64,000 bases of DNA from Acidobacteriota bacterium (lineage in GTDB: Bacteria > Acidobacteriota > UBA890 > WLXD01), in assembly GCA_965248695.1 (NCBI GenBank), contig CBDFKD010000002.1, positions 5,013,201 to 5,077,200 of the forward strand, read 5' to 3'. Made by a program: the position numbers and the translations under genes. Each line of letters opens with the position of its first letter. The stretch's first letter is position 1. The notes beneath the pieces were generated by a model. The model was not told the origin of the DNA. It saw only the letters and a program-made list of their open reading frames with translations, and made no database searches. Positions 36 to 48,976 of this stretch are shown here, piece after piece.

Positions 36-1337
36 CTACAGGCCCCGTCGCATGTAGCGGCTGATGGCGTCGATGGCGCGCTCGATATCCACTTCCGTGT
101 TGTAGAAGTGCGGCGAGAAGCGGATTCCACCCCGGTCCGACCCACCGCGAGACGCGGCAACGATGCCGTCCTCCTCGAGCGCTCCGAGAACTCGTCTGGC
201 ATCGAGATTCCCGGGGCGGAAGGTGACTACCGCTGCACGCAATCGCGGATCTGCCGGGGTCCACATGTGAACGCCGTCGATCGCGTTCAGGCCTTCGATG
301 AGCTGGCTGGCCAATCCTCGGCTCCGTGCCTCGATCTCGTTTTGACCGATCGATTGGAGGAACTCGATCTGCGTGCCGAAGGCCTGCAGCGCGGGGGTGT
401 CGCGCTGACCCATGCCCTCGTGCGTGCGCGACAAGCCCGACCGTCCCGAGTAGGCGCTGTAGCTCGAGGGCCAGAAACGATCTTGGACCCGCGCGTTGAC
501 GTACAGCACTCCGGTCTCCTTCGGGCCGCACGGCCATTTATGAGCGCTGCCCGAATAGAAATCCGGCTGGATATCGGACAAGTCCACGTCCAGCAGGCCG
601 AACGACTGGGCGCCGTCGATCAATGAAATGACGCCGCGTTCTCTGGCCAGGGCACAGAGCTCTTTGGCGGGAAAGAGATCTCCCGCGGTGTTGCTCTGGT
701 GCATGAAGGTCAGGACGCGCGTTTTCGCCGTGATGGCACGCTCGAACGCCGAGATGTAGTACTCGAATCCGGGGTGCGGATTGACTTGCTCCACTTCCCG
801 TACGGTGTAGCCGAAACGTTCCGCCTTGCCCTTCCACGCCTCGTTGTTGCTGGGGTGGTTGTCCGAGAAGATCAGGACCTCGTCGCCCGGCCCCAGGTCG
901 AGCCCGTTCGACACCCAGTTGTTCGCCTCGCTCGTGTTTCTCGTAATGAGGATCTCTTCGGGCGTGACGCGCAGGAATCCGGCGAGCAGCTCGCGCGTAC
1001 GTTCCTTGCCCGCACCGATCTCGCTGCGATAGCTGGGAAACGGGGCACGATCCAGTTGTTCGGTGTGCTTGACGACCGACTCCATTACCAGGGCTGGGGC
1101 AGGGCACAGGTTCGCCGCATTCAGGACCGATACATCGGGTGGCATCAGGAATTGTGACCGAACGTCATCCCAGGCGACCGCGCCCGGGCGAAGAGATCGG
1201 GCCGAGAGCAGCGGAGGTTGAAACCCCGCGAAGCCCGGGTGTCCGAGCAGCGCGGCCGAGCCGCCGGCGGCGAAGAGGCGTGCGAAGTCACGACGGTTCA
1301 AGGGCATGCGGCGCATGGGATCCTCCTGGGTCTGCAC
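36..1337 (-). CDS. Class V aminotransferase (PLP-dependent; cysteine desulfurase / isopenicillin-N epimerase-like) with Tat signal
   Basis: 433-aa ORF. PLP-lysine motif SGSAHKW and class-V fold signatures. N-terminal RRDFARLFAAGGSAALL twin-arginine signal. Confidence 0.75.
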   Translation of the reverse strand: MQTQEDPMRRMPLNRRDFARLFAAGGSAALLGHPGFAGFQPPLLSARSLRPGAVAWDDVRSQFLMPPDVSVLNAANLCPAPALVMESVVKHTEQLDRAPFPSYRSEIGAGKERTRELLAGFLRVTPEEILITRNTSEANNWVSNGLDLGPGDEVLIFSDNHPSNNEAWKGKAERFGYTVREVEQVNPHPGFEYYISAFERAITAKTRVLTFMHQSNTAGDLFPAKELCALARERGVISLIDGAQSFGLLDVDLSDIQPDFYSGSAHKWPCGPKETGVLYVNARVQDRFWPSSYSAYSGRSGLSRTHEGMGQRDTPALQAFGTQIEFLQSIGQNEIEARSRGLASQLIEGLNAIDGVHMWTPADPRLRAAVVTFRPGNLDARRVLGALEEDGIVAASRGGSDRGGIRFSPHFYNTEVDIERAIDAISRYMRRGL

Positions 1338-1523
1338 GGTGATGGAGCCAAACTACTGTTCGTGAGAGCGACCGGCAATACGTTGAGGTTCAGCTCGTCG
1401 CCGCAAGTCTCGCCAGCATGCGATTTGCACCGCCCCGGGACGGACCAGTGCGGTTGGCAGTCCGATCTGATACACACCGGCCAGGGGAGCACCCGAGCAC
1501 CTCCGAACGAGAGAGGCACAGCG

Positions 1524-3320
1524 ATGAAGGCACGGACCCTGCTGATTCTCGTCTTGCTGCTGACGCTTGCGCCCAGGGGGCACGCGCAAGAGGTCATCGC
1601 ACCGCCGGCCGTCGCCACTCGCGCAGTGGCGATGAACCCCATCAACCCGTCCGCAGCGGGTACGACGATCACCCTCACCGGCAAGGACCTCACGATCGAC
1701 GAGGTCGTCGCGGTGGCGCGCCACGGCGCGAAGGTGGAGTACGCTCCCGCGGCTCGGCAGCGCGCTCTCGACGCCTACAACCTCCTGCTCGAGGGCACAC
1801 GCCAGAACGTGCCCATCTATTTCTTCAATCGCGGCGCGGGTTCGGGGCGCGAGATCGCCATCTTCGAAGGGGATGCGCTCCTGCCCGAGAATGAGCAGAT
1901 GCTCCGAGACCGCCAGCTCGCAAGCTTCCGCCGCGGTGCTCGCTCGGGCGTCGGCCCGGTGGTCAGGGACGAGGAAATCGTGCGGGCGATGATGGTCGTT
2001 CGCGCCAACACCATGGTCTACGAGGCGGCCACGCCCGCGCTCACCCAGATGCTCATCGACCTGATCAACGAGAGGGTCACTCCTGTCGTCTGGTCGCGTG
2101 GCTCGCCGGGCGAGGGTGACCTGCCGATGATGTCCAACGTCGCCGGGACGATGGTTGGCGCCGGCGACGCGTACTGGAATGGGGTACGGATGACGGCGGC
2201 GGAGGCCCTGCAAAGGGCCGGTCTGGACGAGCTCGAGCCCTTTGCCGGTGACTCTGCGGCACTAGTGAGCTCGAACGCGTACTCGGCCGGCCAGGCCGCG
2301 CTGTTGCTCCACGAGGCCAGACGCATGCTCGACTGGTCGGACGTGACCTTCACGACAAGCATGCTCGGTCTCAATTCGAGCATCACACCGCTGACCGCCG
2401 TACCACAGAACGCCCGCCCTTTCCCGTACCAGAACATGCAGGCGCGGCGCCTGCTGAACCTCATACGCGGTAGCTACCTCTTCGACTACGAGGTAGACGG
2501 CGGCCGGATCATCCAGGACCCGCTCAGTTTTCGCGACTACAGTCAGCGCAACGGCGCGCTATGGGAGGCCTACGACCGGCTCAAGCGTAACGTCCTGATC
2601 CAGATCAACTCGTCCGACCACAACCCGGCTGTCGTGCCCGGCGCCAAGCCGAGCGACTCCTGGGAGCTCGATACCCCCTGGTTGAAGCGGTACTACATCG
2701 AGCCCGGCCCGTACTCGGAACAAGGCGGCTACATCGTCTCGAACGCGAACTTCGTGGCCCAACCCATGGCCAACGACCTGCAGGCCTTCTCGATGGCCGT
2801 TGCCGAAAGTCTGGCGGGTTCGGTGCAGCGTGTCATGCGCTTCCCGGACACGTTCTTCAGCGTTATCAGGCCGGCCGATGTTCTCTCCGCGGAGGTGCGC
2901 GCCAAGGCGCCCTCGGGGGGCAATGGCTGGGCGACCTCGGACCTCATGGCCGAGCTCCACACTCTGACGAACCCGTTACCGGCGCAGGGGCTTGCCCTCG
3001 TCCGCAACGTCGAGGACATGGAGTCGTATACGCGCCAACGCGTTGGGCGAGCTCGGCAGGCCGTAGACATCGCGCTTCGGATCATCGCGCAGGAGATGCT
3101 CTCAGCGAGCTACTGGGTCGAGGTCCGCAGAGCGCAGAACCCGGCCCGTTCGTTCGGTCGAGTGGCGGAGGATGCGCTGGCCGGCCTTCGCACTGTCCTG
3201 CCGTGGCAGGCGGATGAGCGGCCATCGATACCGGTAGGAGAGATCGTCTATGCGTTCATGCTGAGCAATCCGGCGGCTAATTACATCGGTGCTGAGGAGG
3301 GAAGCAGCGTTCCCCGCTGA
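1524..3320 (+). CDS. Aromatic amino acid ammonia-lyase (HAL/PAL) family protein without the MIO-forming Ala-Ser-Gly triad; Sec signal peptide
   Basis: ATG at 1524 preceded by GAGAGG. Signal MKARTLLILVLLLTLAPRGHAQE. Collinear with HutH, with SDHNPAV matching SDNPLV and NANFVAQPMA matching GGNFHAEPVA. Where GASGDL should be, the sequence is SPGEGDL. Confidence 0.6.
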   Translation: MKARTLLILVLLLTLAPRGHAQEVIAPPAVATRAVAMNPINPSAAGTTITLTGKDLTIDEVVAVARHGAKVEYAPAARQRALDAYNLLLEGTRQNVPIYFFNRGAGSGREIAIFEGDALLPENEQMLRDRQLASFRRGARSGVGPVVRDEEIVRAMMVVRANTMVYEAATPALTQMLIDLINERVTPVVWSRGSPGEGDLPMMSNVAGTMVGAGDAYWNGVRMTAAEALQRAGLDELEPFAGDSAALVSSNAYSAGQAALLLHEARRMLDWSDVTFTTSMLGLNSSITPLTAVPQNARPFPYQNMQARRLLNLIRGSYLFDYEVDGGRIIQDPLSFRDYSQRNGALWEAYDRLKRNVLIQINSSDHNPAVVPGAKPSDSWELDTPWLKRYYIEPGPYSEQGGYIVSNANFVAQPMANDLQAFSMAVAESLAGSVQRVMRFPDTFFSVIRPADVLSAEVRAKAPSGGNGWATSDLMAELHTLTNPLPAQGLALVRNVEDMESYTRQRVGRARQAVDIALRIIAQEMLSASYWVEVRRAQNPARSFGRVAEDALAGLRTVLPWQADERPSIPVGEIVYAFMLSNPAANYIGAEEGSSVPR

Positions 3321-3378
3321 CCGCAGCCCTGGGGGCGGCGATCGAGGGGCCGCGCGCGATGAGCGGTGGAGGTCGAGG

Positions 3379-5133
3379 ATGCAGAGAGTCACAGTGATGG
3401 CAGCTGCTGCGCTGCTGCTCGTGTCGTTCCTGGGCACGGCGGCCGCTCCTCAGGTCTCGAGCCCGGTCGTTGCCGAGGTGATCTATCGCAACGGCAAGAT
3501 CTTCAAGGGTCTCGACGAGAGCTTCGCAGATGCGGTCGCGGTTCGCGACGGCAGGATCGTCGCGGTGGGAGCCGACGAGTCGGTGCTCACGCACCGGGGC
3601 GAAGCGACACGGTTTGTCGATCTCGAAGGCCGCACGATGCTGCCGGGGTTCTTCGACAACCATATTCATCTCGGGCGCGACGGCCCACCGCTGATGGAGT
3701 GGAAGGGCGGTCTGATCGCCGAGGTGCCCGACTGGATCCGCGCCGCCACCGAAGTCACGAGCCTGCAGGACGCCTTGCGCGACAAGGCGGCTGCAACACC
3801 GCAGGGGGAGTGGATTCTAGGGGCTCTGAGCCGTGAGGTCTGGCCGAACCAGAGCCTGCCGACGCGGTGGGACCTGGACGAAGGCGCGTTCGACCACCCG
3901 GTGCTGCTGACCCGGGGCCCGCACACCACGATTCTCAATTCCCGTGCCCTGACCCTGGCGGGAATCAGCAACTCGACGCACTCCGCCGGCGGCGGCGAGA
4001 TCGGCAAAGACGCCGCCGGTGAGCCCGACGGCCGGCTCTACGACGCCGCGCGGCGCCTGGTTGCGGAGGTGGCGCCCTCGAGTGGTGCCGGTGTCATCGA
4101 TGAGCGTCAGGCGATCGAGAACATGCGGCGCAGCCTGCTCCAGCATGCCAGCGGAGGCGTGACGAGCGTAAACATCGCGTCGGTGCGGCCGGGCGAGCTG
4201 CGCACGATCCAGACCCTCTACGAGCGTCATGGCGAAGAGCTTCCGCGAGCCACGGTTCAGCTACGTCTGCGGCCCGGCTATGATGCCTATGACGATCTCG
4301 ACGTGGCGGTTCGCGAGTCCGTCCGGGAGCTGGAATCGATCGGGTTCGTCACCGGCTTCGGCGACGATCGCCTCCGGCTCGGTGCCATCAAGATGAGCAT
4401 TGACGGTGGCTTGAGCGCGCCGGCGTTCTGGTCGCTCGCACCCTATGAGAACCGGCCGGAGTTCCAGGGCGTCGTGCGCATTCCAGCTGCTGCCTTCTAC
4501 CCGGTGGCCCGGCGGGCTCACGAGCTGGGTTGGCAGCTCGGAATCCATACCATCGGCGACGGCGCCGCCGAGATGGTGGTGTCACAGCTGGAGCAGATCC
4601 TCACCGAACTGCCGCGCGAGAATCATCGCCACTACCTGCACCACGTGTCGGTGAAGCCGCCGCAGGAGACCATCGAAACGATGGCGCGCCTCGGCATCGG
4701 CGTTGCCAGCCAGCCGAGCTTCACCGTCGGTCTCGGAGCATTCGCCGTCGAGGCACTGGGCGGGAACCGCGAGGCGACGATGAACCCGACACGATCGCTG
4801 CTCGACGCCGGCATATGGGTGAGCTGGGGCTCGGACGGCGCCCCCTACGGTCCACGCGTCAGCCTGTGGACCGGGATCACGCGGAAGGGTTGGGACGATC
4901 GGGTGTACGGTGCGGCAGAGGCGGTTACGCGCTCGGAGGCCGTCCATCTGCATACGTGGGCACCGGCCTACCAGACCTTCTCGGAGGACGTGAAGGGGAC
5001 CATCGAGGTTGGCAAGCTGGCAGACTTCGTGGTGTTGGGAGCGGACCTGTTCACCATCGACGTGGATCGCATCCGCTACGTCACGATATTGCGGACGATC
5101 GTCGGGGGACGCGAGATCTACACGCGACACTAG
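3379..5133 (+). CDS. Metal-dependent amidohydrolase (amidohydrolase-3 / YtcJ-like) with signal peptide
   Basis: ATG at 3379. Signal MQRVTVMAAAALLLVSFLGTAAA. FFDNHIHLG metal-binding motif. About 585 aa. Confidence 0.7.
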   Translation: MQRVTVMAAAALLLVSFLGTAAAPQVSSPVVAEVIYRNGKIFKGLDESFADAVAVRDGRIVAVGADESVLTHRGEATRFVDLEGRTMLPGFFDNHIHLGRDGPPLMEWKGGLIAEVPDWIRAATEVTSLQDALRDKAAATPQGEWILGALSREVWPNQSLPTRWDLDEGAFDHPVLLTRGPHTTILNSRALTLAGISNSTHSAGGGEIGKDAAGEPDGRLYDAARRLVAEVAPSSGAGVIDERQAIENMRRSLLQHASGGVTSVNIASVRPGELRTIQTLYERHGEELPRATVQLRLRPGYDAYDDLDVAVRESVRELESIGFVTGFGDDRLRLGAIKMSIDGGLSAPAFWSLAPYENRPEFQGVVRIPAAAFYPVARRAHELGWQLGIHTIGDGAAEMVVSQLEQILTELPRENHRHYLHHVSVKPPQETIETMARLGIGVASQPSFTVGLGAFAVEALGGNREATMNPTRSLLDAGIWVSWGSDGAPYGPRVSLWTGITRKGWDDRVYGAAEAVTRSEAVHLHTWAPAYQTFSEDVKGTIEVGKLADFVVLGADLFTIDVDRIRYVTILRTIVGGREIYTRH

Positions 5134-5142
5134 CGTGAATTG

Positions 5143-5763
5143 CTAGCGCGCGATTTCTGCCAGGGCGGGGACCAGATCTCCGTAGCCGGTAAAGCGACGC
5201 TCATACTCGAGGCCCAGAAAGTCTGCCGCTTCGCGCGCCAGCTCGTCCAACTGCGGATCATCCGTCTGGGCGATGTACAGCGCCGTTGTGTAGTTGCCGA
5301 AATACATCTCCAACAATTCCGGATGCCGGTCGAGCCCCAGTGGGCGTTTCAAGAACGCATCGAAGTTACGTGCGAAGAAATCCGTGATGAAGAATGTCGT
5401 CAGGTAGGCACCGTCTGCTTCTTCGAAGGCTTGATTGCCGATGTAGAACGAAAAGCAATGCGGCCCTTCGATGCGTGACACGCCGTGCTTTTCGCATACC
5501 TTGTCCAGCTCGCCGCAGGTGCCGCAATCGGCGTAGCCGACGAATACATGCTCATAGCCGTCAGCACGCGCCTTGTGGATTGCGGCGTCCATGGCCGGGG
5601 CTATTTTTTCCGGATGAAAGTGGTAGTCGGCGGGCAGGCACTTCAGGTCGACGTAGTCGAAACCCAGCTGCTCGTTTACCGCCAGGACTTCACGGGCAAT
5701 CATGCCGCAGGCGATGACGCGGATCTTTCGCTTCTGTGCTGTGCCCGCAGGGTGCGTGATCAT
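5143..5763 (-). CDS. DUF1638-like protein (hypothetical)
   Basis: 206-aa ORF with a conserved Cys pattern (IACG...YADCGTCG). Weak recollection of DUF1638; function unknown. Confidence 0.35.
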   Translation of the reverse strand: MITHPAGTAQKRKIRVIACGMIAREVLAVNEQLGFDYVDLKCLPADYHFHPEKIAPAMDAAIHKARADGYEHVFVGYADCGTCGELDKVCEKHGVSRIEGPHCFSFYIGNQAFEEADGAYLTTFFITDFFARNFDAFLKRPLGLDRHPELLEMYFGNYTTALYIAQTDDPQLDELAREAADFLGLEYERRFTGYGDLVPALAEIAR

Positions 5764-5877: not shown

Positions 5878-7092
5878 CTACTTCACCGCCATGATTTGAA
5901 TTTGCACGACCCCACGACCAAGCGGCTGTTCGCCGACCACGGTCCAAGCCGGATAATCCCCCGTGAAGACCTCGCGGTACGCATCAACCATCGCAGGGTA
6001 ATCCCGCGTGTCACTCAGAAGAACCCATGCATCAACGACGTGCCGCCACTCGAAGCCGGCTGCTTTCAACCCACGACCCAGCCTGGCCAGCACCTCCCGC
6101 GTCTGCGCGTTCGCGTCGCCTCTGGTCGCGTCGGTCACGCCCTGGATTCCGCTGCTGAACAAGCGATTGCCAACAACGACCATGGGGCTCGCTGAGGGTG
6201 CGACGTCAGCATTCGGAATGCTGATAATCGTTTTCGGAGCCTCGACGGAGATAGTGGTGATCTCATCAAGGATGGTGCCCATGATGCCGGCCCTGAGGGT
6301 CGCCCGCGCCGGAGGGTCTTTAGGGAAGAAAGCGCGATAGGCCTCGTCCATCTCGTTCGCCAGCGCCTGATCCTGTACATAGACACGCGAGAAGACGACG
6401 TCGGCATGTGACATTCCAGCCGTCGACAACGCCTCCCCGATATCAGTCAGGGTTTGGGTCACATCCTTTCGCATGTCGCCACGTATGTACTGGCCCCCTC
6501 GCTTGTTGCTGGCGACGAGTCCCGAAATCCACAGCGTGTCGCCTGACTTGATTGCCCACGGGTAGGGCAGATTTGACTTCCCCCATTCCGCGGGTTGGAC
6601 GATTGTGCGCTCAGCTCCCTTGCGCAGTGCGATGATCGTGATCTCCACTAGGGCTGCGGATGGTGCCAATAGGTCGCCGGCCATGGTGGTCCGGACCGGG
6701 AGATCCAAATCGTCGCCTCGCGCGGTCTTGTGGGTGGTCTTGGGCCAGCCTGGATAGGCCTTGTACTCCTCGTTCATGGCCCTGAAGTCACCCTTGCTCC
6801 GCAGGTACACGTAACTCGAAACCGCCTGTTCAAGGCTGGTGTCTGCGTCGTGCAGGATCGCGGAGATGTTGTCGAGAGCCCGCCGAGTCTGGGTCTTGAT
6901 GTCGCCGAACCTACCGTCAGGTTCGCGTCCGAACTGTCCGGAGACGTACACGTAGTCGCCGGCGACCACTGCCGCACTTGCCGGCATATCGCGGTCCCCG
7001 CCGGTCATCTTGATGACCCGTTTGCCGCCCTGGCCCAGAGTCGCCACCTGAATCGCTCCGACTAGCAGAATGACGCCACCGATCGCGCGCAC
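5878..7092 (-). CDS. Secreted triple-RidA (YjgF/endoribonuclease L-PSP) domain fusion protein
   Basis: 404 aa with a signal peptide and three ~125-aa repeats. Each carries a RidA-like motif: YVYVSGQ, TLWISGL and RLFSSGI. Confidence 0.6.
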   Translation of the reverse strand: MRAIGGVILLVGAIQVATLGQGGKRVIKMTGGDRDMPASAAVVAGDYVYVSGQFGREPDGRFGDIKTQTRRALDNISAILHDADTSLEQAVSSYVYLRSKGDFRAMNEEYKAYPGWPKTTHKTARGDDLDLPVRTTMAGDLLAPSAALVEITIIALRKGAERTIVQPAEWGKSNLPYPWAIKSGDTLWISGLVASNKRGGQYIRGDMRKDVTQTLTDIGEALSTAGMSHADVVFSRVYVQDQALANEMDEAYRAFFPKDPPARATLRAGIMGTILDEITTISVEAPKTIISIPNADVAPSASPMVVVGNRLFSSGIQGVTDATRGDANAQTREVLARLGRGLKAAGFEWRHVVDAWVLLSDTRDYPAMVDAYREVFTGDYPAWTVVGEQPLGRGVVQIQIMAVK

Positions 7093-12428: not shown

Positions 12429-14357
12429 CTAGCCGTGGCGCATCTGCAAGAGCTCGCCGACGGCGCGGTGAGCCTGATCGATGGCGATCTCGGTCATGGC
12501 CCGTGCGCCGGTGTCGGAGTTGGCGATGGCGATCCGGCCACGAGGATGCCGGGCGGTGACCCAAGGGGCACGCTCGGGCGGCACCTCATCGGGCCTCCAC
12601 GCGATCTGACCCGTCTTCGGATCGAGGCCTTTAGCATAGCCGTGCGGCCAGCGGTTCACCGTGATGGCCTCGATGTCGCGCGCCGGGTCGAAGCCTCCGG
12701 CGGACAGTATCCGGCCGAGCTGGTCCCTGATCTTTCGCTCGAAGGTCGCGAACGTCGTCGCCAGCAGACCATGGCGCGCGGCCTTCCACTGCTCAGCCAC
12801 GGACCGCCCGCGGGCCTCCGGTACGAGGGGAACGCGCCACATGCGCACGACGATGGGCTCCTCGGGCGTACCAGCGTGTCGGTAGTTGCCGATGCTGATG
12901 GGTGGCGGCACATTCACGTTCTCGAAATAACTCCCCGGGCAGCGCACCCTGCTCACACCGAGCCTGGCGAAGGCGGTCCAGTTGCGGATCAGGACGTTGG
13001 TGTAGACAAGGGGCGACTTGAGTGCGTTCGATAGCGCCTGTTTTTGAGTATCCGGCAGCTCCTCGCAGATCAAAGGGATCACGGCGTTGTAACAGGCGAG
13101 CACGCAACGACCGGCGCGAACGCGCCGGGCGTGGCCGTCGCGGACGTAGGTGACCTCGACCTCCTTGGCGGTTCGCCGATCGCCACGGTGAGCTACCCGC
13201 ACCGCTGTGCTCTCCAGACGCACGCGGACAGCCGAGCCTTCCCGATCGAGCTTGCCGTAGTCGAACGGAGCGTCGACGATGTCCTCCATCGTGCTGCCGG
13301 GAGCGACCTCTGGGATCAGCGACCGGACGATCAGACGCGCGATCGACGCGTTGCCATCCGGAAACTGGAAGAAAGCACGCTCCTCGCGGTTATCATCGGC
13401 ACCATCATCGTCGTCGCCGAGCCCCAGCCCGGTGGTCCCAGGCCAGCGGCCGGCGCCGAGCCAGGCGGGGACGCCATCGAGGCCGATAGTCCAACCGCCG
13501 GAGGTCTCGAGGAAGGAGATTGCCTCGCGACCTATCTTGGCCACCTTCAAGAGAAAGTCTTCGTAGCTCGTGTTGCGAAGAAACTCGACCTTTTCCTCCA
13601 AGCTGAGGTGTGCCAGGTAATCGATGTTCGGCTCGTGGAGTCTTACAAGGTCATCACGTGCCGTTTCGGACAGGGGCGCGCGCGCCAGGAACTCGCGCCA
13701 AGAGGGCTCGCCTTCGCCTACCAGCAGCCGATCGGTGCCGAACGTTTCGCGGTCGAAGAAAACCGATCTGCGCAGGCCAAGTGAGCTGTACAGATCGCTA
13801 TCGACGAATTCGGAGTAACGGCTTACGTCGATGCCAATCCCGCGGATCAGGCGCTGGGCTCCTTCACCGTACTCGTTCAGGTTGGAGATAAAAATCGTGC
13901 CGCCATGTGACAGGAACATCCGACCGTCGAGCCGGAACTCGTTGCGCTTGGCATGACCGCCGAAGTCGTCGTGGTTGTCGAGAATCAGGATGCGGGCGTC
14001 GGGAACCGCTTCCTGGTAGAACCACGCCGCTGCGAGGCCGCTGAGGCCACCGCCAACCACGACCAGATCGTAGAGCTCACCCGTCTCCTCCGCGTTGTCC
14101 CAGCGCACGCCTTCGACAAGCTGGTGGGCAACCTCGTAGGAGCCGTCGTGGCTGCCGCGCATGCCGGTACGGATGGGTGGGTACGCGTCGGCGAGGGTCT
14201 GTGAGACCCCTCCCGGAGCCTCAGGGCTCGCCAAGGCGTTCGTCTGCGCCCACGGGAACGTGAGACTGCCGCTTAGCGCAACGCTGACACCGGAGACGAA
14301 GTCGCGACGGTTAATCTCCCGGTGCATCCCGAGATCACGATCATCACTGCTGGACAT
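12429..14357 (-). CDS. FAD-dependent oxidoreductase, Tat-exported (paralogue 1)
   Basis: GxGxxG motif VVVGGGLSGLAAAWFY. Tat motif INRRDFVSGVSVAL. Roughly 75-80% nt identical to 31003..33003. The start was chosen to match the paralogue (MSSSDDRDLGMH). Confidence 0.7.
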   Translation of the reverse strand: MSSSDDRDLGMHREINRRDFVSGVSVALSGSLTFPWAQTNALASPEAPGGVSQTLADAYPPIRTGMRGSHDGSYEVAHQLVEGVRWDNAEETGELYDLVVVGGGLSGLAAAWFYQEAVPDARILILDNHDDFGGHAKRNEFRLDGRMFLSHGGTIFISNLNEYGEGAQRLIRGIGIDVSRYSEFVDSDLYSSLGLRRSVFFDRETFGTDRLLVGEGEPSWREFLARAPLSETARDDLVRLHEPNIDYLAHLSLEEKVEFLRNTSYEDFLLKVAKIGREAISFLETSGGWTIGLDGVPAWLGAGRWPGTTGLGLGDDDDGADDNREERAFFQFPDGNASIARLIVRSLIPEVAPGSTMEDIVDAPFDYGKLDREGSAVRVRLESTAVRVAHRGDRRTAKEVEVTYVRDGHARRVRAGRCVLACYNAVIPLICEELPDTQKQALSNALKSPLVYTNVLIRNWTAFARLGVSRVRCPGSYFENVNVPPPISIGNYRHAGTPEEPIVVRMWRVPLVPEARGRSVAEQWKAARHGLLATTFATFERKIRDQLGRILSAGGFDPARDIEAITVNRWPHGYAKGLDPKTGQIAWRPDEVPPERAPWVTARHPRGRIAIANSDTGARAMTEIAIDQAHRAVGELLQMRHG

Positions 14358-14589
14358 GGGTCCTCCGGATTCTCTGACGCCGTTGCTGCGCGGACCGTCG
14401 GTTCTCGAGTCCCTAGCGATTCCTCTCGTGTCCAAACTCTACCGTTCCGGAGCCTAACGCCCAGTTGGGCTGAGTGCCACGATCGTAGGAGGTGCGCTCG
14501 TTGGCGGGGGTTCCTTGAGTGGAAGCGGCCATGACGGCAACGTCGTGATCGCGATAGGCTCCGACGCCATGATCGCCATACGAACCGAT

Positions 14590-30899: not shown

Positions 30900-31010
30900 T
30901 AGACGGGCCGAGCCACACGAACCGGTACTCCCACGAGCAGCGAGAGCAGCTACGTATCTCCGACGACGGTGTGCTGGGTCCGCTTGAACCGATTCGCTTG
31001 TCTTACCGTA
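30900..31010 (-). pseudogene. Duplicated 5' fragment of the 7101..7943 methyltransferase gene, with an in-frame stop
   Basis: ~90 nt near-identical to 7860-7945. Would encode RQANRFKRTQHTVVGDT*, versus MRQANRFKRTNHAVVGDTHLL in the intact gene. It supplies the last codons of the oxidase paralogue. Confidence 0.6.
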
Positions 31011-33003
31011 TCTCGCTCGTACTGGAGGCTCTTCGCCGGGCGCGGCTTCGAACAAGCAGCTGCTCCCGCACCGCTCGATGTGCCTCGTCGATAGCCGAGT
31101 CGGTGTGTGTCGAGGCAGCGGCATCGGAGTTGGCGATGGAAATCCGACCGAATCGCCGGCTCCCGACTACGCACGGCCGATCGTCGGGTGTGAACAGCGC
31201 CCACTCGATGGGATCGTCCAGGGTGTTGTAGCTGTATGCATAGCCGTGCGGCCAGCGATTCACCGTGATCGCTTCGATGTCGCGAGCCGGGTCGAAGCCC
31301 CCACCCTCCAGCATTCGACCGAGCTGGTCGCGGATGTTGCGCTCGAATGTCTCGAAGCTCGTGGCCAACAGATTCTCTCGCCCGATGCGGTGCTGCTGCT
31401 TCTTCGGGTGTCCAGGAGCGCAGGGCGTTCTGGACATGTGCAGAATCATCGGGTCCTCGGGTGACCTGGAGGGTTGGTACTCACCGAACTGCACGGAGCG
31501 GCCAAGGCTGACCCCGCTGTGGTACATCCCCGGCGCGGTCACCCGTGAGACTCCGAGGTTCTTGAAGGCCTTCCAATCTCGGGTAAGGACGTTGGTGGAG
31601 ACGAGCGGCATCTTGACACCATACTTGAGCGCCACCTTCTGCTCGTCGGACATCTCTGGGCACAGGTGTGGGATGACCCCGTTCCAGCAGCCCATCACAC
31701 AGTGACGCGCCCGTACCTTCTCGGCCTTGCCAGCGCGTAGATAGGTAATCTCGACTTCGCGGGCCACATCGGGATCGCCCAGGTGCCGGACGGAGACGCC
31801 CATGCTGTTGAGGCGAATCCTGGCGTCGGAACCCTCGCGGTCTAGGCGGTCGTACCTGAGTCGCGACGTCATCGAGTCGTCCAGCGAGGTGCCGGGAAGC
31901 GCGTCGGGAATCATGGCGCGAACCAGCAACCGTGCCAGCGTCGCGTTGCCGTCTGGAAAGTGGATGTCCGGTCGATCGTCCCACTCGTTCTCGCGACCGT
32001 GTTGCCCGCCGCCGATGTGGGCAAGGGGGCCCACCAGGGGAAGGGTCTCGAGGTTCATCCCCTGGAAGCCGGGATAGCCCTGGGCCCATGCGTAGAGTGC
32101 CGGATGGGCGTCGATGCCAACGCAGAAGCTACCCTTCGGGCGGTCATCGAAGAACGGGATCACATCCGAGTGAACCTTGGCCAGATCGAGCAGAAAGTCC
32201 CGGTAGCTGATGCGTGCCAGGCGCTCCTTCTTGTCCGCATCCGACAGTCCGGGCATGGTGTCCGGGTTCGCATCGTCGTCGTAGAGCCGCGCGATGTCCC
32301 TCTGCGCCTCCGGAGACATCGGGGTCTTTGCGAGCCACTCGGCCCATGCACCCGATTGCCCGCCGCGTCCCATCACCAGCCGATCCTCGCCGAACACCTC
32401 CTTGCTGAAGAACGTGGCGTTGCCCAGGCCCAGCGATCCGTAGAACCTCCTACCCGCGGCGCTGGTGGCATAGGCGCTGTCGATGTCGATGCCGACCGCA
32501 GCGAGAAGCGTCCTGCAGACGGCGCTGTAGTGGCCCACAGACTCGAGGTACGACGTACCGCCGGGCAGCATCAGCGTACGGCCTCGATAGGTCATCTCGT
32601 TGCGCTTGGCATGGCCGCCAAAGTCGTCGTGATTGTCGAGGACAAGGACACGCGCACCGCGGCCAGCCGAGGTCAGGAAGAAATAGGCTGCCGAAAGCCC
32701 GCTCAGCCCCCCACCGACCACCACGCAATCGTAGCGCTCACCGGTATCGGCGGCATCGGTCCAAGAGTTGCCGTCGCGAAGCGCATGGCCGGCCTCGAAG
32801 GAACCGGGGTGGCTGCCGCGCATTCCGGTCAGGGCCGGGGGGTAGTAGTCCTGCGCGAGTGGCGCATAGGGCTTGCCCTCGCGTGCCGACGACCAGCCCG
32901 GTGCGATGAGCGCCCCCCCGATCGCAACCCCCACGCCGTTAACGAAGTCGCGCCGGGTGATATCACGGTGCATCCCTAGATCACGATCCTCACTTGTGGG
33001 CAT
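31003..33003 (-). CDS. FAD-dependent oxidoreductase, Tat-exported (paralogue 2)
   Basis: MPTSEDRDLGMHRDITRRDFV Tat signal and a GGGLSG FAD motif. Paralogue of 12429..14357. Its C-terminus is altered by fusion with the methyltransferase fragment. Confidence 0.7.
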   Translation of the reverse strand: MPTSEDRDLGMHRDITRRDFVNGVGVAIGGALIAPGWSSAREGKPYAPLAQDYYPPALTGMRGSHPGSFEAGHALRDGNSWTDAADTGERYDCVVVGGGLSGLSAAYFFLTSAGRGARVLVLDNHDDFGGHAKRNEMTYRGRTLMLPGGTSYLESVGHYSAVCRTLLAAVGIDIDSAYATSAAGRRFYGSLGLGNATFFSKEVFGEDRLVMGRGGQSGAWAEWLAKTPMSPEAQRDIARLYDDDANPDTMPGLSDADKKERLARISYRDFLLDLAKVHSDVIPFFDDRPKGSFCVGIDAHPALYAWAQGYPGFQGMNLETLPLVGPLAHIGGGQHGRENEWDDRPDIHFPDGNATLARLLVRAMIPDALPGTSLDDSMTSRLRYDRLDREGSDARIRLNSMGVSVRHLGDPDVAREVEITYLRAGKAEKVRARHCVMGCWNGVIPHLCPEMSDEQKVALKYGVKMPLVSTNVLTRDWKAFKNLGVSRVTAPGMYHSGVSLGRSVQFGEYQPSRSPEDPMILHMSRTPCAPGHPKKQQHRIGRENLLATSFETFERNIRDQLGRMLEGGGFDPARDIEAITVNRWPHGYAYSYNTLDDPIEWALFTPDDRPCVVGSRRFGRISIANSDAAASTHTDSAIDEAHRAVREQLLVRSRARRRASSTSEIR

Positions 33004-35809: not shown

Positions 35810-36790
35810 TGACCCGCTTCCGTGGACACCTTATGGCTAACGCCAAAGGAGTCTGCGATGCGAAGAACACGACCGCCTTATCCGCCGGAGTTTCGCCGGC
35901 AGATCGTCGAGCTAGCGCGGGCAGGACGCAGCGTGCAGGAGCTCGCCGAGGAGTTCGAGCCCTCGTACTGGACGATCCGTACATGGATCAAGCAGGCGGA
36001 TCGAGATGACGGGCTTAGCGCGGCTGGCCTGAGTAGCCAGGACAAGGAAGAACTACGGCGGCTACGCCGGGAAAACCGCCAGTTGAAGACGGAGCGGGAG
36101 ATCCTGGCAAAAGCCGCGGCCTGGTTCGCTCGGGAGACCGGCGCAGTACCCAAGAAGTCTTCGGGTTCGTGAGAGCTCACCAGGCCTGCTATCCGATCGC
36201 CACGATGTGCCGAGTGCTGGAGGTCTCCACCAGCGGCTACTACGCGTGGCGACAACGCCCTAGCAGTATGCGAGCACGACAGGATGCACAGCTGCGTGAG
36301 CAGATCGAGACGATCCATCGACTTAGCCGTGCGACCTATGGCGTGCCTCGGGTACACGCGGAACTGGCCGCCGACGGCGTTCGGGTGGGGCGCAAACGCG
36401 TGGCACGGCTGATGAGCCAGGCGGGGCTGGAGGGTGTCAGCCGCCGCCGTCGGCTGCGCACGACGCGCCGCGGTACTGACGCGCAGCCGGTGCCCGATCT
36501 GGTGAAACGTGACTTCGCGGTCGGTGCACCCGATCGCCTGTGGGTTGCCGACATCACGTACGTCTCTACGTGGTCGGGGTTCTTGTACCTGGCGGTGGTG
36601 ATGGATGCCTTCAGCCGGCGGGTGGTGGGCTGGTCGATGGCCAACCACCTGCGTACCGAACTGGTGCTTGAGGCGCTCAACATGGCGATCTGGCAACGCC
36701 GACCTGAGAGCGTGATCCACCACTCTGATCAGGGCACGCAATACACCTCGATCGCCTTCGGCCACCGCTGCAAGCAGCTCGGTGTACGTC
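35810..36790 (+). mobile_element. IS3-family insertion sequence, 3'-truncated (IS#1)
   Basis: OrfA (HTH, leucine zipper) and OrfB (DDE integrase core, 209 aa, lacking its C-terminus) in a -1 overlap. The candidate IRL TGACCCGCTTCC begins near 35810. The right end is replaced by IS#2. Confidence 0.55.
35858..36172 (+). CDS. IS3-family transposase OrfA
   Basis: MRRTRPPYPPEFRRQIVELARAG...ENRQLKTEREILAKAAAWFA. Confidence 0.8.
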   Translation: MRRTRPPYPPEFRRQIVELARAGRSVQELAEEFEPSYWTIRTWIKQADRDDGLSAAGLSSQDKEELRRLRRENRQLKTEREILAKAAAWFARETGAVPKKSSGS

Positions 36791-36798
36791 TGACCTGA
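36169..36798 (+). CDS. IS3-family transposase OrfB (truncated)
   Basis: DDE domain motifs LWVADITYV and HSDQGTQYTS. It ends early where IS#2 is inserted. Confidence 0.75.
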   Translation: MRAHQACYPIATMCRVLEVSTSGYYAWRQRPSSMRARQDAQLREQIETIHRLSRATYGVPRVHAELAADGVRVGRKRVARLMSQAGLEGVSRRRRLRTTRRGTDAQPVPDLVKRDFAVGAPDRLWVADITYVSTWSGFLYLAVVMDAFSRRVVGWSMANHLRTELVLEALNMAIWQRRPESVIHHSDQGTQYTSIAFGHRCKQLGVRLT

Positions 36799-36856
36799 CC
36801 CCCGAAAACGGATCCGGATGTAATCTCACGATCTGGGTCAAGAACGGGAGGTCAGA

Positions 36857-37135
36857 ATGCCGAGTAAGAGGCACAGCGCCGAGCAGATCGTACGCAAGCT
36901 CCGGGAGGCTGAGGTGGAGCTGGCTCGAGGGGCGACGGTCAAGGATGCCTGCCGCAAGCTAGCAATCACCGAGCACACCTACTACCGGTGGCGGCGAGAG
37001 TACGGCGGACTGAAGCTCAACCAGGCCAGAAAGCTCAAGCAACTGGAGAAGGAGAATGCCCGGCTCAAGAGGCTGGTGGCGGAAAAGGAACTCGACCTGT
37101 CGATCCTGAAGGAAGTGGCGGAGGGAAACTTCTGA
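36857..37135 (+). CDS. IS3-family transposase OrfA
   Basis: MPSKRHSAEQIVRKLREAEV...ENARLKRLVAEKELDLSILKE. Confidence 0.8.
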   Translation: MPSKRHSAEQIVRKLREAEVELARGATVKDACRKLAITEHTYYRWRREYGGLKLNQARKLKQLEKENARLKRLVAEKELDLSILKEVAEGNF

Positions 37136-38016
37136 GCCCAGCTCGGCGGCGAGAGGCGGTGGCACATGTACGGGGGCGGCTGGGCGTCTCGGAGAGGCGG
37201 GCGTGTCGGGTACTGAAACAACCACGCACGACACACCGGTACGTGCCAAGAGAGCCGCAACAGGAGCAGATTTTGACGGAGCGGATCGTGGATTTAGCCC
37301 GACAGTACGGGCGCTACGGATATCGGAGGGTGACAGCGTTGCTGCGCATGGAGGGCTGGTCCGTGAACCACAAACGAGTGCAGCGTATCTGGCGGCGCGA
37401 AGGGCTGAAAGTACCGAGAAAACAGCCCAAACGAGCACGGCTGTGGCTGAGCGATGGCTCCTGCATCCGGCTGCGCCCACAGCACCGGGATCATGTCTGG
37501 GCGTATGACTTCCTGCACCACCGGACGCACGACGGTCGGGCTATGAGGCTGCTGACGATCGTCGATGAGTACACACGAGAAAGCCTGGCGATCCATGTAG
37601 CACGGAAGCTCAACTCTGAGGACGTGCTGGAGCAGCTCGGGAGGTTGTTCGTACACCGGGGCATACCTGAGCACATCCGGTCGGATAACGGACCAGAGTT
37701 CACCGCCGAGGCGGTTCGCGACTGGCTGGGCCGGTTGGGCGTGGGGACGCTGTTCATCGAGCCGGGCTCGCCGTGGGAGAACGGTTACGTGGAGAGCTTC
37801 AACGGCAAGCTACGCGACGAGCTGCTGGATGGAGAGATCTTCTACACGCTCAAGGAGGCAAAGGTTCTGATCGAGAGATGGCGTCAGCACTACAACCGCA
37901 TGCGACCGCACAGCTCGCTGAGCTATCGGCCGCCCGCACCCGAAGCGACGTTGTTGAAGCCGGCTGCGCTCCGCTTCGCCGGCCTCAACAACCTCTTGTC
38001 AGCACCGAGTTACTGA
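37132..38016 (+). CDS. IS3-family transposase OrfB (via -1 frameshift from OrfA)
   Basis: DDE motifs VWAYDFLH, IRSDNGPEFT and PWENGYVESFNGKLRDE. This frame is open from 36988. Confidence 0.75.
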   Translation: MSPARRREAVAHVRGRLGVSERRACRVLKQPRTTHRYVPREPQQEQILTERIVDLARQYGRYGYRRVTALLRMEGWSVNHKRVQRIWRREGLKVPRKQPKRARLWLSDGSCIRLRPQHRDHVWAYDFLHHRTHDGRAMRLLTIVDEYTRESLAIHVARKLNSEDVLEQLGRLFVHRGIPEHIRSDNGPEFTAEAVRDWLGRLGVGTLFIEPGSPWENGYVESFNGKLRDELLDGEIFYTLKEAKVLIERWRQHYNRMRPHSSLSYRPPAPEATLLKPAALRFAGLNNLLSAPSY

Positions 38017-38400: not shown

Positions 38401-38486
38401 GCGCCCGAGATCCATCGCCAGCGGAGGCGAGATCCAGCCGGTGGGGCAGGGGATGCACCGGAGGACAACGGCGAAATAGAGGGAGT
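38401..38486. repeat. Repeat copy f: partial R-core plus trailer immediately 3' of tRNA-Glu
   Basis: gcgcccgagatcca / ggcgagatccagccgg, then the trailer caacggcgaaatagagggag that is shared with copy c. Confidence 0.5.
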
Positions 38487-38560
38487 AGCCCCAACGGGAT
38501 TTGAACCCGTGCCGCCGGCTTGAAAGGCCGGTGTCCTAACCTGGCTAGACGATGGGGCCA
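38487..38560 (-). tRNA. tRNA-Glu (anticodon UUC)
   Basis: Reverse complement GGCCCCATCGTCTAGCCAGGTTAGGACACCGGCCTTTCAAGCCGGCGGCACGGGTTCAAATCCCGTTGGGGCTA. Cloverleaf with anticodon loop CTTTCAA. CCA not encoded. Confidence 0.8.
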
Positions 38561-38606
38561 CCCTGGAAAACCGCTGTGGCGAGGCCGGGTCACTAGGTAG
38601 AAGTGT

Positions 38607-38679
38607 GGGCCGTCAGGGGATCGAACCCTGGACACCCGGCTTAAAAGGCCGGTGCTCTGCCAACTGAGCTAACGGCCCG
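38607..38679 (-). tRNA. tRNA-Lys (anticodon UUU)
   Basis: Reverse complement GGGCCGTTAGCTCAGTTGGCAGAGCACCGGCCTTTTAAGCCGGGTGTCCAGGGTTCGATCCCCTGACGGCCCA. Anticodon loop CTTTTAA. Confidence 0.85.
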
Positions 38680-47470: not shown

Positions 47471-48976
47471 ATGGTGATCGAGATCGATGGTCTCAACCTG
47501 CGGTTGGCCGAGGTGGAACGCGTGGCGAGATCGGCCGGGCCCGCGGTCCAGCTCGCCGCGGCCGCGCGTGAGGCCATGGATCGTACGCGAGAGCACGTCG
47601 ACGCCATCGTGGAGTCGGGTGAGCCAGCCTATGGCGTGAACACCGGCTTCGGGCACTTCGCCGAAGTCAGCGTGCCGCCCGACCGGGTGCGTGAGCTACA
47701 GCTGAACCTGGTGCGATCGCATGCCGTGGGCACGGGCGAGCCCCTGCCGCCAGAGGCAGTGAGGGCGCTGCTGCTGTTGCGCGCCAACGTCATGGCGCGA
47801 GGTGCTTCGGGAGTGCGACCCGCAGTAGCGGATCAGATGCTCGGCCTGCTGCGAGCCGACGCGCTTCCGGTGGTGCCTCGTCAGGGCTCGGTCGGCGCGT
47901 CGGGCGACCTCGCGCCGCTGGGGCACCTGGCTTTGGTCCTCATTGGTGAGGGCGACGCCACGATCGATGGCGAGCGCGTGTCGGGCGCTGACGCGCTGCG
48001 CCATGCCGGGCTGGAGCCGCTGGAGCTTCTGGCTAAGGAAGGACTGGCGTTGCTGAACGGCACGCAGGTGATGACTGCCCTTGGTGTGCTTGCCAGCGCC
48101 GAGCTGTTGCGGCTCTGCAGCATTGCCAACGTCGCCGGTGCTCTGAGTCTGGAGGCGCTGCGCGGCAAGACAGGGCCGTTCGATCCCGTAGTGGCAGAGC
48201 TGCGACGTCACCCCGGACAGGCGGTGTGCGCCGATGAGCTACGCCACCTGCTACACGAGAGCGAGCTGGCGAACAGCGATGCGACACGGGTGCAGGACTG
48301 CTACTCGCTGCGCTGTATGCCGCAGGTGCACGGTGCCGCGGTCGATGCTTGCGAGGCCGTACGGCGGGTGCTCCGAATAGAAGTGAACTCGGCGACCGAC
48401 AACCCGCTCGTGCTCGCGGATGGCCGCCTGCTCAGCTGTGGCAATTTTCACGGGCAGCCAGTAGCCCAGGCGCTCGACTGGTTGGCGATGGCGGCCGCCG
48501 ACCTAGCGTCAATCTGTGAGCGCCGCATCAACCGGCTATTGAACCCCAACCTGTCTGGTCTGCCGGCGTTCCTGGTGCGCGACGGCGGAGTGCGGTCCGG
48601 ATATCTGCTGGTGCAGACCGCCGCCGCGTCGCTGGTATCCGAGACACGAACGCTGGCAGCGCCCGCCAGCATCGACAGCATCCCGACCTCGGCCGATCAG
48701 GAAGATCATGTGTCGATGGGCGTCTGGAGCGGCTGGAAGGCGATGCTGGCGGTGGTGAACTGCCGCCGGGTGGTGGCCATGGAGTTACTTTGCGCTGCGG
48801 AGGCAGTGAGCTTCCATTCCCCCGCGGTTCCGGCTCCGAGGCTGGGAGAAGCGCACGCCTGGGTACGGCAGGAGGCGGCAGCCCTCGACGCCGACCGCTC
48901 GCTCGCGGCGGATATCGAGAATCTGGCGAATCGCCTGGTCGATGACACGCTGCTCGCCCGGGTCGCGCTACGGTGA
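47471..48976 (+). CDS. hutH: Histidine ammonia-lyase family (MIO-dependent) enzyme
   Basis: GSVGASGDLAPLGH MIO triad. SDNPLV. GGNFHGQPVA. 501 aa. No hutU, hutI or hutG adjacent. Confidence 0.8.
   Translation: MVIEIDGLNLRLAEVERVARSAGPAVQLAAAAREAMDRTREHVDAIVESGEPAYGVNTGFGHFAEVSVPPDRVRELQLNLVRSHAVGTGEPLPPEAVRALLLLRANVMARGASGVRPAVADQMLGLLRADALPVVPRQGSVGASGDLAPLGHLALVLIGEGDATIDGERVSGADALRHAGLEPLELLAKEGLALLNGTQVMTALGVLASAELLRLCSIANVAGALSLEALRGKTGPFDPVVAELRRHPGQAVCADELRHLLHESELANSDATRVQDCYSLRCMPQVHGAAVDACEAVRRVLRIEVNSATDNPLVLADGRLLSCGNFHGQPVAQALDWLAMAAADLASICERRINRLLNPNLSGLPAFLVRDGGVRSGYLLVQTAAASLVSETRTLAAPASIDSIPTSADQEDHVSMGVWSGWKAMLAVVNCRRVVAMELLCAAEAVSFHSPAVPAPRLGEAHAWVRQEAAALDADRSLAADIENLANRLVDDTLLARVALR

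Follow-up and report, generated by a model that had tools for sequence, protein, structure and literature searches.

An exported PF00221 protein without the MIO triad in an Acidobacteriota genome, a putative trimethylammonia (betaine) lyase

Histidine ammonia-lyase (HAL) carries an electrophilic cofactor, 4-methylideneimidazole-5-one (MIO), that is formed from an Ala-Ser-Gly triad. What, then, is a protein of the same family that has no such triad and bears an export signal? The question is raised by a gene in a stretch of 64,000 nucleotides from an Acidobacteriota bacterium (assembly GCA_965248695.1, contig CBDFKD010000002.1, positions 5,013,201 to 5,077,200 of the forward strand), which we refer to in its full length as the window. 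The gene (1524..3320, plus strand; Pfam Lyase_aromatic, E 1.1e-92) encodes 598 amino acids and is described here as an exported, MIO-less PF00221 protein and putative trimethylammonia (betaine) lyase. Across a divergent intergenic region of 207 bp, read directly from the sequence (1317..1523), lies the gene for an enzyme with pyridoxal 5'-phosphate (PLP) and a class-V fold, similar to PvdN and SufS and exported by twin-arginine translocation (Tat) (36..1316, minus strand, 426 amino acids; Aminotran_5, PF00266, E 1.5e-49). Downstream of the lyase gene an exported YtcJ-like Amidohydro_3 metallo-hydrolase is encoded (3379..5133, plus strand, 584 amino acids; PF07969, E 5.7e-82). An initial annotation had placed these three genes here, and both their positions and their expected Pfam families are confirmed. 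The window also holds a genuine cytoplasmic HutH with an intact GASGDL motif (47471..48976, plus strand; 624 bits in NCBIfam hutH, where the cut-off is 539), which serves as comparator throughout.

Family placement and the missing MIO triad

The lyase-family protein aligns with the HutH of the window, as the initial annotation had described (27% identity over 515 columns, E 4e-33). At the MIO site HutH reads GSVGASGDLAP and the paralogue SRGSPG-EGDLP, and SPGEGDL (2103..2123) replaces the MIO-forming G-A-S-G-D-L with exactly the motif first reported. A shifted but intact Ala-Ser-Gly was found in none of the BLAST, MAFFT or hhalign alignments, and the earlier statement that the protein cannot form MIO is upheld by this search. 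The substitution is a feature of the family. GSPGEGDL is present in 110 of the best 120 database homologues and GTPGEGDL in 8 more, and residues G196, E197 and D199 are invariant in all 73 aligned members, among them 72 genome-derived relatives. The triad is missing without exception in more than 190 homologues, so that one is not dealing with the private decay of a single paralogue.

Several comparisons place the protein beside ergothionase. The best sequence match in the PDB is the ergothionase of Treponema denticola (6s7j/6s7q; phmmer E 5e-36), while the best MIO enzymes reach 1e-19 to 1e-20. With an AlphaFold2 model of the lyase (pLDDT 73.7, pTM 0.77) Foldseek again puts 6s7j on top (E 1.4e-22, TM 0.80); the structures of HAL, tyrosine ammonia-lyase, phenylalanine ammonia-lyase (PAL) and tyrosine aminomutase (TAM) all come after it, at E values of 1e-17 to 1e-19. 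Aligned by hhalign with 18 ergothionase-like sequences, the lyase family gives a probability of 100% (E 8e-96, 525 columns). The protein stays under the cut-off in all eight NCBIfam models of MIO enzymes (hutH, PAL, TAM etc.), and the best of these, hutH, scores 171 bits where 539 are needed. Three signatures are common to the lyase and ergothionase and absent from HutH, namely Y-x-x-N-R-G, S-x-G-E-G-D and Q-D-P-L-S-F-R. The loop of the catalytic tyrosine reads IYFFNRG in the window protein, VYGLNRG in ergothionase and YGVNTG in HutH, and at the MIO site SPGEGDL and SIGEGDI stand opposite GASGDL. The third motif (2514..2534) is QDPLSFR in both the window protein and ergothionase, versus QDCYSLR in HutH and QD(C/A)YSLR in the HAL consensus. 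In a neighbour-joining tree the window family forms a long branch of its own within the MIO-less group, which also contains P0259, a likely representative of the SO_3299 type.

MIO-less PF00221 proteins have been described as trimethylammonia-lyases, in which the quaternary ammonium leaves readily enough to make an electrophilic cofactor needless; the periplasmic Swoo_3913, SO_3057 and SO_3299 have been purified and characterised (Bertsova et al., bioRxiv 10.1101/2025.08.13.670108, 10.64898/2026.04.22.720169). Thus, chemistry independent of MIO is already known in outline since the work on ergothionase, and periplasmic examples were added in 2025-26. We consider it probable that the HAL-like gene of the window encodes an exported, catalytically active, MIO-free lyase of the ergothionase/histidine-betaine-lyase branch. 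The initial annotation had offered two explanations for the missing triad, a different chemistry or a non-catalytic binding subunit. The first is favoured, as ergothionase 6s7j is the top match by sequence, fold and profile, while the second is disfavoured by catalytic residues that are kept.

The same comparisons bear on how these proteins are named. At E <= 1e-30, 192 proteins of the lyase family are found in a library of 1.84 billion representatives. Among the best 120 homologues, most of those sourced from the Joint Genome Institute (JGI), about 50 of the 120, bear the name histidine ammonia-lyase despite being unable to form MIO (e.g. P0007, P0010, P0013). This naming of the JGI-sourced homologues is a systematic mis-annotation, and we suggest as a rule that a PF00221 protein with S-x-G-E-G-D and QDP(L/E)S-x-R should not be annotated as histidine ammonia-lyase. 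Most homologues outside the close group of the window protein end in an Arg/Lys-rich C-terminal tail of 30-60 residues (e.g. ...RRxxLRRQA... in P0017, P0035, P0061, P0083 and P0098). Many of the tailed proteins are probably from Thermoleophilia or Gammaproteobacteria, and the window protein and its acidobacterial relatives have no tail. The tail might act as an envelope anchor.

Active site and genomic context of the lyase clade

Does the protein retain what is needed for catalysis? With residue roles taken from the two preprints of Bertsova et al., the answer from the family alignment is largely yes. Tyr99 (1818..1820), the counterpart of the tyrosine that abstracts the beta-proton (HAL Tyr53; the Tyr of VYGLNRG in ergothionase), is present in 71 of the 73 members, and the remaining 2 are gapped at this site. 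Gln331, Arg337 and Asn362, which bind the carboxylate, do not vary, position 410 is (near-)invariant as Phe or Trp, and Glu497 (3012..3014), which corresponds to HAL Glu414 and to the Glu of IEDH in ergothionase, is kept in 71/73. Since these positions are held so strictly, a non-catalytic role is disfavoured. A ligand-binding or structural paralogue that lost lyase function together with MIO would explain why both the Ala-Ser-Gly triad and HAL Tyr280 are gone, the latter position being Leu334 in the subgroup of the window protein and Glu in the larger subgroup. However, the catalytic tyrosine, the carboxylate binders and the glutamate are under strong purifying conservation over three phyla, and the identical losses occur in ergothionase and histidine betaine lyase, which are demonstrably active. 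We regard the non-catalytic explanation as very improbable, and the binding subunit proposed at first does not fit the 72 genome-derived members. With HutH, both that of the window and the Pseudomonas putida HAL 1b8f, the protein shares the fold, the catalytic tyrosine, the Gln/Arg/Asn set and the equivalents of Phe329 and Glu414; unlike HutH it is exported and has neither Ala-Ser-Gly, Tyr280 nor His83, apart from the low identity and model score given above. Two subtypes can be distinguished within the family by covarying positions, QDP-L-SFR with Phe410 (16 sequences, including the window protein and ergothionase) and QDP-E-SLR with Trp410 (57 sequences). Locus L005 carries the two subtypes in tandem, adjoining a trimethylamine dehydrogenase gene.

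The substrate is a separate matter. The window protein resembles the T. denticola ergothionase in the PF00221 fold, the absent triad, the three signatures and the retained Asn, Phe and Glu. Unlike this cytoplasmic enzyme it has a signal peptide, is about 100 residues longer and shares only ~26% identity with it. The imidazole-binding histidine, invariant in the ergothionase-like alignment (H83 in A3), is absent. Its site falls into a clade-specific inserted loop, F-R-R-G-A-R-S, where hhalign matches His83 to Ala139 and MAFFT to Arg140 (1938..1943), and position 140 varies among the paralogues (R, L, Q, S). The second specificity residue of ergothionase, Lys384, is replaced by Trp469 (2928..2930; hhalign and MAFFT are concordant), and the family has Y in 59 cases, F in 5, W in 4 and I in 4 at this position. 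According to the Bertsova et al. preprints, thiolate binding by ergothionase requires Lys384, and the two histidine-betaine-type lyases have Asn or Gln in its place. The Shewanella enzymes Swoo_3913 (a histidine betaine lyase), SO_3057 (an ergothionase) and SO_3299 (an N-pi-methyl-histidine-betaine lyase) are likewise exported MIO-less PF00221 proteins acting on betaines, but they keep the imidazole-binding histidine (Swoo His117; Td His83-84), which the window clade does not have. What the missing histidine affects is the choice of substrate, not the chemistry of elimination. Because the recognition positions for imidazole (His) and thione (Lys) are both replaced, the sequences point to a distinct clade of the trimethylammonia-lyase branch whose substrate is probably a different betaine from ergothioneine and hercynine, or else one of these two, bound in a different way.

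The latter case deserves consideration of its own. A plain exported ergothionase or hercynine (histidine betaine) lyase could recognise its substrate through other residues, for instance Arg140 and Tyr/Trp469. Ergothionase is after all the best match in structure and sequence, and the family conserves Glu497, the counterpart of the imidazole-nitrogen ligand of HAL and ergothionase. Soil fungi and actinobacteria produce ergothioneine and hercynine in abundance, and soil is the habitat of all genomes of the clade. The occurrence of hercynine is also treated in the Bertsova et al. preprint. Against such an enzyme stand the loss of a histidine (the N-tau ligand) that is otherwise invariant in the ergothionase-like set, and the Tyr or Trp in place of a lysine that is essential in ergothionase according to the literature. 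Furthermore, among the recurrent neighbours of the lyase we found no urocanase-like or thiourocanate-hydratase-like gene and no flavocytochrome of the urocanate-reductase type. On balance an ordinary ergothionase or hercynine lyase seems unlikely to us.

For a betaine lyase, the reaction can be outlined by homology. An alpha-N,N,N-trimethyl amino acid would be bound via its carboxylate by Gln331, Arg337 and Asn362, and Tyr99 would abstract the beta-proton. Trimethylamine would then depart directly, the quaternary ammonium being a leaving group good enough to do without an electrophilic cofactor, and the products would be an alpha,beta-unsaturated acid and trimethylamine. The trimethylamine released may subsequently be oxidised, which is consistent with genes for trimethylamine dehydrogenase and electron-transferring flavoprotein (ETF) that adjoin the lyase gene in many relatives.

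This genomic context was collected from a scan of 185,579 species genomes, which yielded 75 lyase loci; their neighbouring genes were called by GC3 and then clustered. All 75 loci come from uncultured soil-type metagenome-assembled genomes. They belong to Acidobacteriota (84-89% identical to the window protein), Thermoleophilia/Solirubrobacterales, Steroidobacteraceae and other Gammaproteobacteria, and one alphaproteobacterium. The most recurrent neighbour is a full-length trimethylamine dehydrogenase orthologue of ~735 amino acids, which matches PDB entry 1djn with E values of 2e-228 (a copy from Steroidobacteraceae) and 6e-266 (one from Thermoleophilia), compared with ~1e-150 for histamine dehydrogenase. 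At 17 of the 75 loci (12 of 39 in Actinomycetota, 5 of 31 in Proteobacteria) it is 1-6 genes away from the lyase, and gene order and orientation vary. Trimethylamine dehydrogenase is a rare gene, and by our estimate, which was not computed, chance would place it within ~16 genes in well under 1% of loci. ETF and Fe-S genes are found near the lyase in 12/39 actinobacterial versus 2/31 proteobacterial loci, and most of the dehydrogenase-linked actinobacterial loci also carry ETF alpha/beta and an Fe-S CCG oxidoreductase. Proteins similar to GcvT or DAO-GcvT, APC permeases and ProP-like transporters of the major facilitator superfamily are further recurrent neighbours. The dehydrogenase-linked loci include the signature subgroup of the window protein (YRQ[AP]RSPGEGDQLRNF[YW]E), at 61-68% identity.

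Steroidobacteraceae carry lyase paralogues in tandem, two or three at a time, that differ at positions 131, 140 and 469 and are placed between TonB-dependent receptors. Such tandem paralogues occur in L036 (6077-11516) and also in L059, L052 and L077, and in the first three of these loci TonB-dependent receptors and tetratricopeptide-repeat proteins flank them. These arrangements look like a locus for uptake and cleavage with several specificities. Taken together, the contexts support the release of trimethylamine as the common reaction. The setting differs from that of the Shewanella operons, which combine their lyases with flavocytochrome c or urocanate reductase for anaerobic respiration, while the window clade, where its loci are informative, is accompanied by trimethylamine dehydrogenase/ETF, permeases or TonB-dependent receptors. 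Other recurrent clusters, c14-c31 (MdoG/MdoH, CopD, multicopper oxidase, PPK2, DDAH, desaturase), were considered as partners and rejected as lineage synteny. In Thermoleophilaceae a class-V aminotransferase (cluster c17) occurs close to the lyase; tblastn at E <= 1e-5 detected no homology between it and the Tat-exported enzyme of the window.

Several observations weigh against the assignment as a betaine lyase that releases trimethylamine. The link to the dehydrogenase is missing in 58 of the 75 loci, including the 4 acidobacterial ones, and tblastn of the window itself detected no trimethylamine dehydrogenase, ETF, GcvT-like or permease genes of the kind seen in the relatives. The dehydrogenase, moreover, is not separable by sequence here from dimethylamine dehydrogenase. 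Both the imidazole-binding histidine and the equivalent of Lys384 are missing, which leaves the substrate putative, and the trimethylamine leaving group is inferred. The low identity to ergothionase counts in the same direction, the neighbour-joining tree carries no support values, and the AlphaFold2 model is of only moderate confidence, with active-site loops below a pLDDT of 50. We therefore distinguish two levels of the proposal. An active, MIO-free lyase of the ergothionase branch remains the probable identity of the protein, as said above. That the clade comprises hitherto unrecognised secreted betaine lyases of soil bacteria, with a non-imidazole alpha-trimethyl amino acid as substrate, is a more tentative suggestion that may well prove wrong.

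Export signals and the relation of the three genes

Are the three neighbours an odd assembly of cytoplasmic enzymes that happen to be exported, and do they form a system? The signal-peptide calls rest on sequence features and on conservation across each family. The aminotransferase begins with MRRMPLNRRDFARLFAAGGSAALLG and contains the twin-arginine motif NRRDFARLF (1272..1298, minus strand). Among its 120 homologues 117 have the motif [SND]RR[DET]F[AT]RLF; of the three without it, at least one is N-terminally shortened. The N-terminus of the lyase, MKARTLLILVLLLTLAPRGHA followed by QE, reads as a Sec-type signal peptide (1524..1586), and the ATG at 1524 has a GAGAGG ribosome-binding site ahead of it. 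At the start of all full-length homologues of the lyase a basic stretch passes into a hydrophobic one, with an Ala-rich site after it; a crude measure of hydropathy recognises the hydrophobic segment in 109 of 111, while the cytoplasmic HutH stays under the cut-off. The amidohydrolase starts with MQRVTVMAAAALLLVSFLGTAAA, and a signal-like or lipobox N-terminus is present in 115 of its 118 homologues. Downstream starts that would remove the signals were considered and rejected. For the lyase the upstream start is required, because distant homologues have the mature end A-Y-N-P-I and carry no Met there, and for the aminotransferase all candidate starts lie upstream of the RR motif. In these two proteins the predicted signal peptides survive the check for false starts. 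The description of the three enzymes as normally cytoplasmic does not: as far as N-terminal sequences can tell, export is the norm in each of the three families.

The initial annotation had also regarded a periplasmic PLP enzyme as unusual in itself. It is uncommon yet precedented, as PvdN and PtaA are exported by Tat with their PLP bound (PMC6206403), and the Tat motif of the present family is kept across phyla. Like PvdN and PtaA, the aminotransferase has a class-V fold, a twin-arginine signal and the PLP lysine (in SAHKW). Its PDB matches are 6wci, SufS and PvdN 5i90 (E 1e-29 to 1e-32). It falls under every NCBIfam cut-off, including those of all desulfurase models, the best being the SufS subfamily and the second PvdN. 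Identity as a SufS/IscS cysteine desulfurase was rejected, since the persulfide Cys of SufS-type desulfurases aligns, in 6wci, with an Asp and the models stay below their cut-offs. It also differs from PvdN, reaching 124 bits in the equivalog model where the cut-off is 650; pyoverdine genes were found neither in the window nor in the loci of the aminotransferase homologues, and the neighbours include peptidases instead. The 120 homologues at >=71% identity, nearly all of ~426 amino acids, come from Acidobacteriota, Gemmatimonadota and Planctomycetota, and their neighbours are Peptidase_S15, beta-lactamase-fold and other hydrolase genes, never a lyase. A gene of the window at 5878-7092 (minus strand) encodes 404 amino acids; the protein has a hydrophobic N-terminus and three RidA/YjgF (Ribonuc_L-PSP) domains in tandem, is apparently exported and is 94.5% conserved in L004. 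An apparently exported enamine/imine deaminase of the RidA type near a Tat-exported PLP enzyme is a curious pairing, since RidA proteins ordinarily remove reactive compounds formed by PLP enzymes.

The amidohydrolase has its PDB match in 3icj, an uncharacterised hydrolase (E 4e-20). Its homologues of 65-68% identity (L083-L085) stand in a cluster of DUF1611, MR_MLE (dipeptide-epimerase-like), an unknown 370-residue protein, the amidohydrolase, a second amidohydrolase and a peptidase of the M14, M20 or M28 type. This cluster suggests the processing of peptides or acyl-amino acids, including peptides with D-amino acids.

Whether the trio acts in one periplasmic pathway, as the proposal of a periplasmic processing module implied, has to be judged from its distribution. 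In such a pathway the amidohydrolase might hydrolyse the product of the lyase, and the PLP enzyme might process a side group. The order aminotransferase (minus), lyase (plus), amidohydrolase (plus) recurs only in two close acidobacterial relatives, L004 (~89-90% identity) and L086 (81-85%), and the trio of L086 is flanked by genes unlike those of the window and L004, which argues for a common role in that the three genes stay together despite differing flanks. The amidohydrolase starts 58 nt past the stop codon of the lyase, and a terminator scan of this gap found no terminator-like site, so the two genes may be co-transcribed; a scan of the intergenic region 1317-1523 detected no sigma-70-like promoter. 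In L074 a distant Amidohydro_3 paralogue (29% identity) adjoins a second lyase paralogue, and ergothioneine catabolism includes a step by the amidohydrolase superfamily in the Burkholderia pathway. On the other side, L003 encodes a lyase that is 84% identical over its full length and has the identical active-site signature, without either partner, and the trio is absent from ~70 other lyase loci. The aminotransferase family is spread far more widely than the lyase clade and is more conserved (>=71% across phyla), with its own peptidase and beta-lactamase-fold neighbours, and the amidohydrolase homologues have the DUF1611/MR_MLE/peptidase clusters as their context. In addition, the whole window is rich in exported enzymes, generally hydrolases; the Pfam families between 8 and 23 kb are unrelated exported hydrolases, short-chain dehydrogenases/reductases and a DcuC transporter. 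A single pathway for the three enzymes therefore appears unlikely. What stands of the module is the conservation of the trio in the window, L004 and L086; as a conserved three-enzyme system it is not supported. The aminotransferase and the amidohydrolase belong to independent exported families, and their adjacency to the lyase is lineage-specific.

Neighbouring genes and meaning of the clade

Right after the amidohydrolase gene, but on the other strand, comes that of a DUF1638 protein without a signal peptide (5143-5763, minus strand); the gene is present in L004 and not in L086. Two paralogues of ~667 amino acids with an NAD_binding_8 domain (12429-14435 and 31003-33003, both minus strand) have N-termini that read DRDLGMHR(E/D), and the copy at 31003-33003 continues with ITRRDF, a motif resembling a twin-arginine signal. 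A similar NAD_binding_8/Thi4 gene for 662-671 amino acids lies near the aminotransferase homologue in L078-L080. Two open reading frames (36169-38016, plus strand; 38485-38678, minus strand) have N-termini that, by our reading of the sequence, resemble the OrfA/OrfB transposase proteins of the IS3 family. They lie beside tRNA-Glu(ttc) and tRNA-Lys(ttt) and could mark an insertion site. No genes other than these two tRNAs were called between 38.0 and 40.7 kb.

The result corrects the view of the three exported neighbours as an odd assembly of cytoplasmic enzymes, and the lyase is the member with the wider implications. What is new is an uncharacterised clade without the specificity-defining His and Lys, which is confined to uncultured soil lineages and whose repeated link is to trimethylamine dehydrogenase and not to reductases of the urocanate type. 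Among uncultured soil bacteria the clade is widespread in Acidobacteriota, Thermoleophilia and Steroidobacteraceae. If these proteins are betaine lyases for non-imidazole substrates, candidate substrates would be hypaphorine, a betaine of plants and fungi, tyrosine or phenylalanine betaine, or another betaine whose side chain is read by residues 140 and 469. The tandem paralogues behind TonB-dependent receptors would then constitute a betaine utilisation locus of multiple specificity, and the clade as a whole an aerobic route in soil, in which trimethylamine is generated extracellularly and subsequently oxidised by trimethylamine dehydrogenase and ETF. Trimethylamine is an important intermediate of carbon and nitrogen metabolism with relevance to climate and health. 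To our knowledge its biological sources are few, namely choline (CutC), carnitine (CntAB), trimethylamine N-oxide, glycine betaine reduction, ergothionase and, recently, the histidine-betaine lyases. Should the reading as betaine lyases hold, the clade would extend this list by a substrate class and a habitat that are both new to it.

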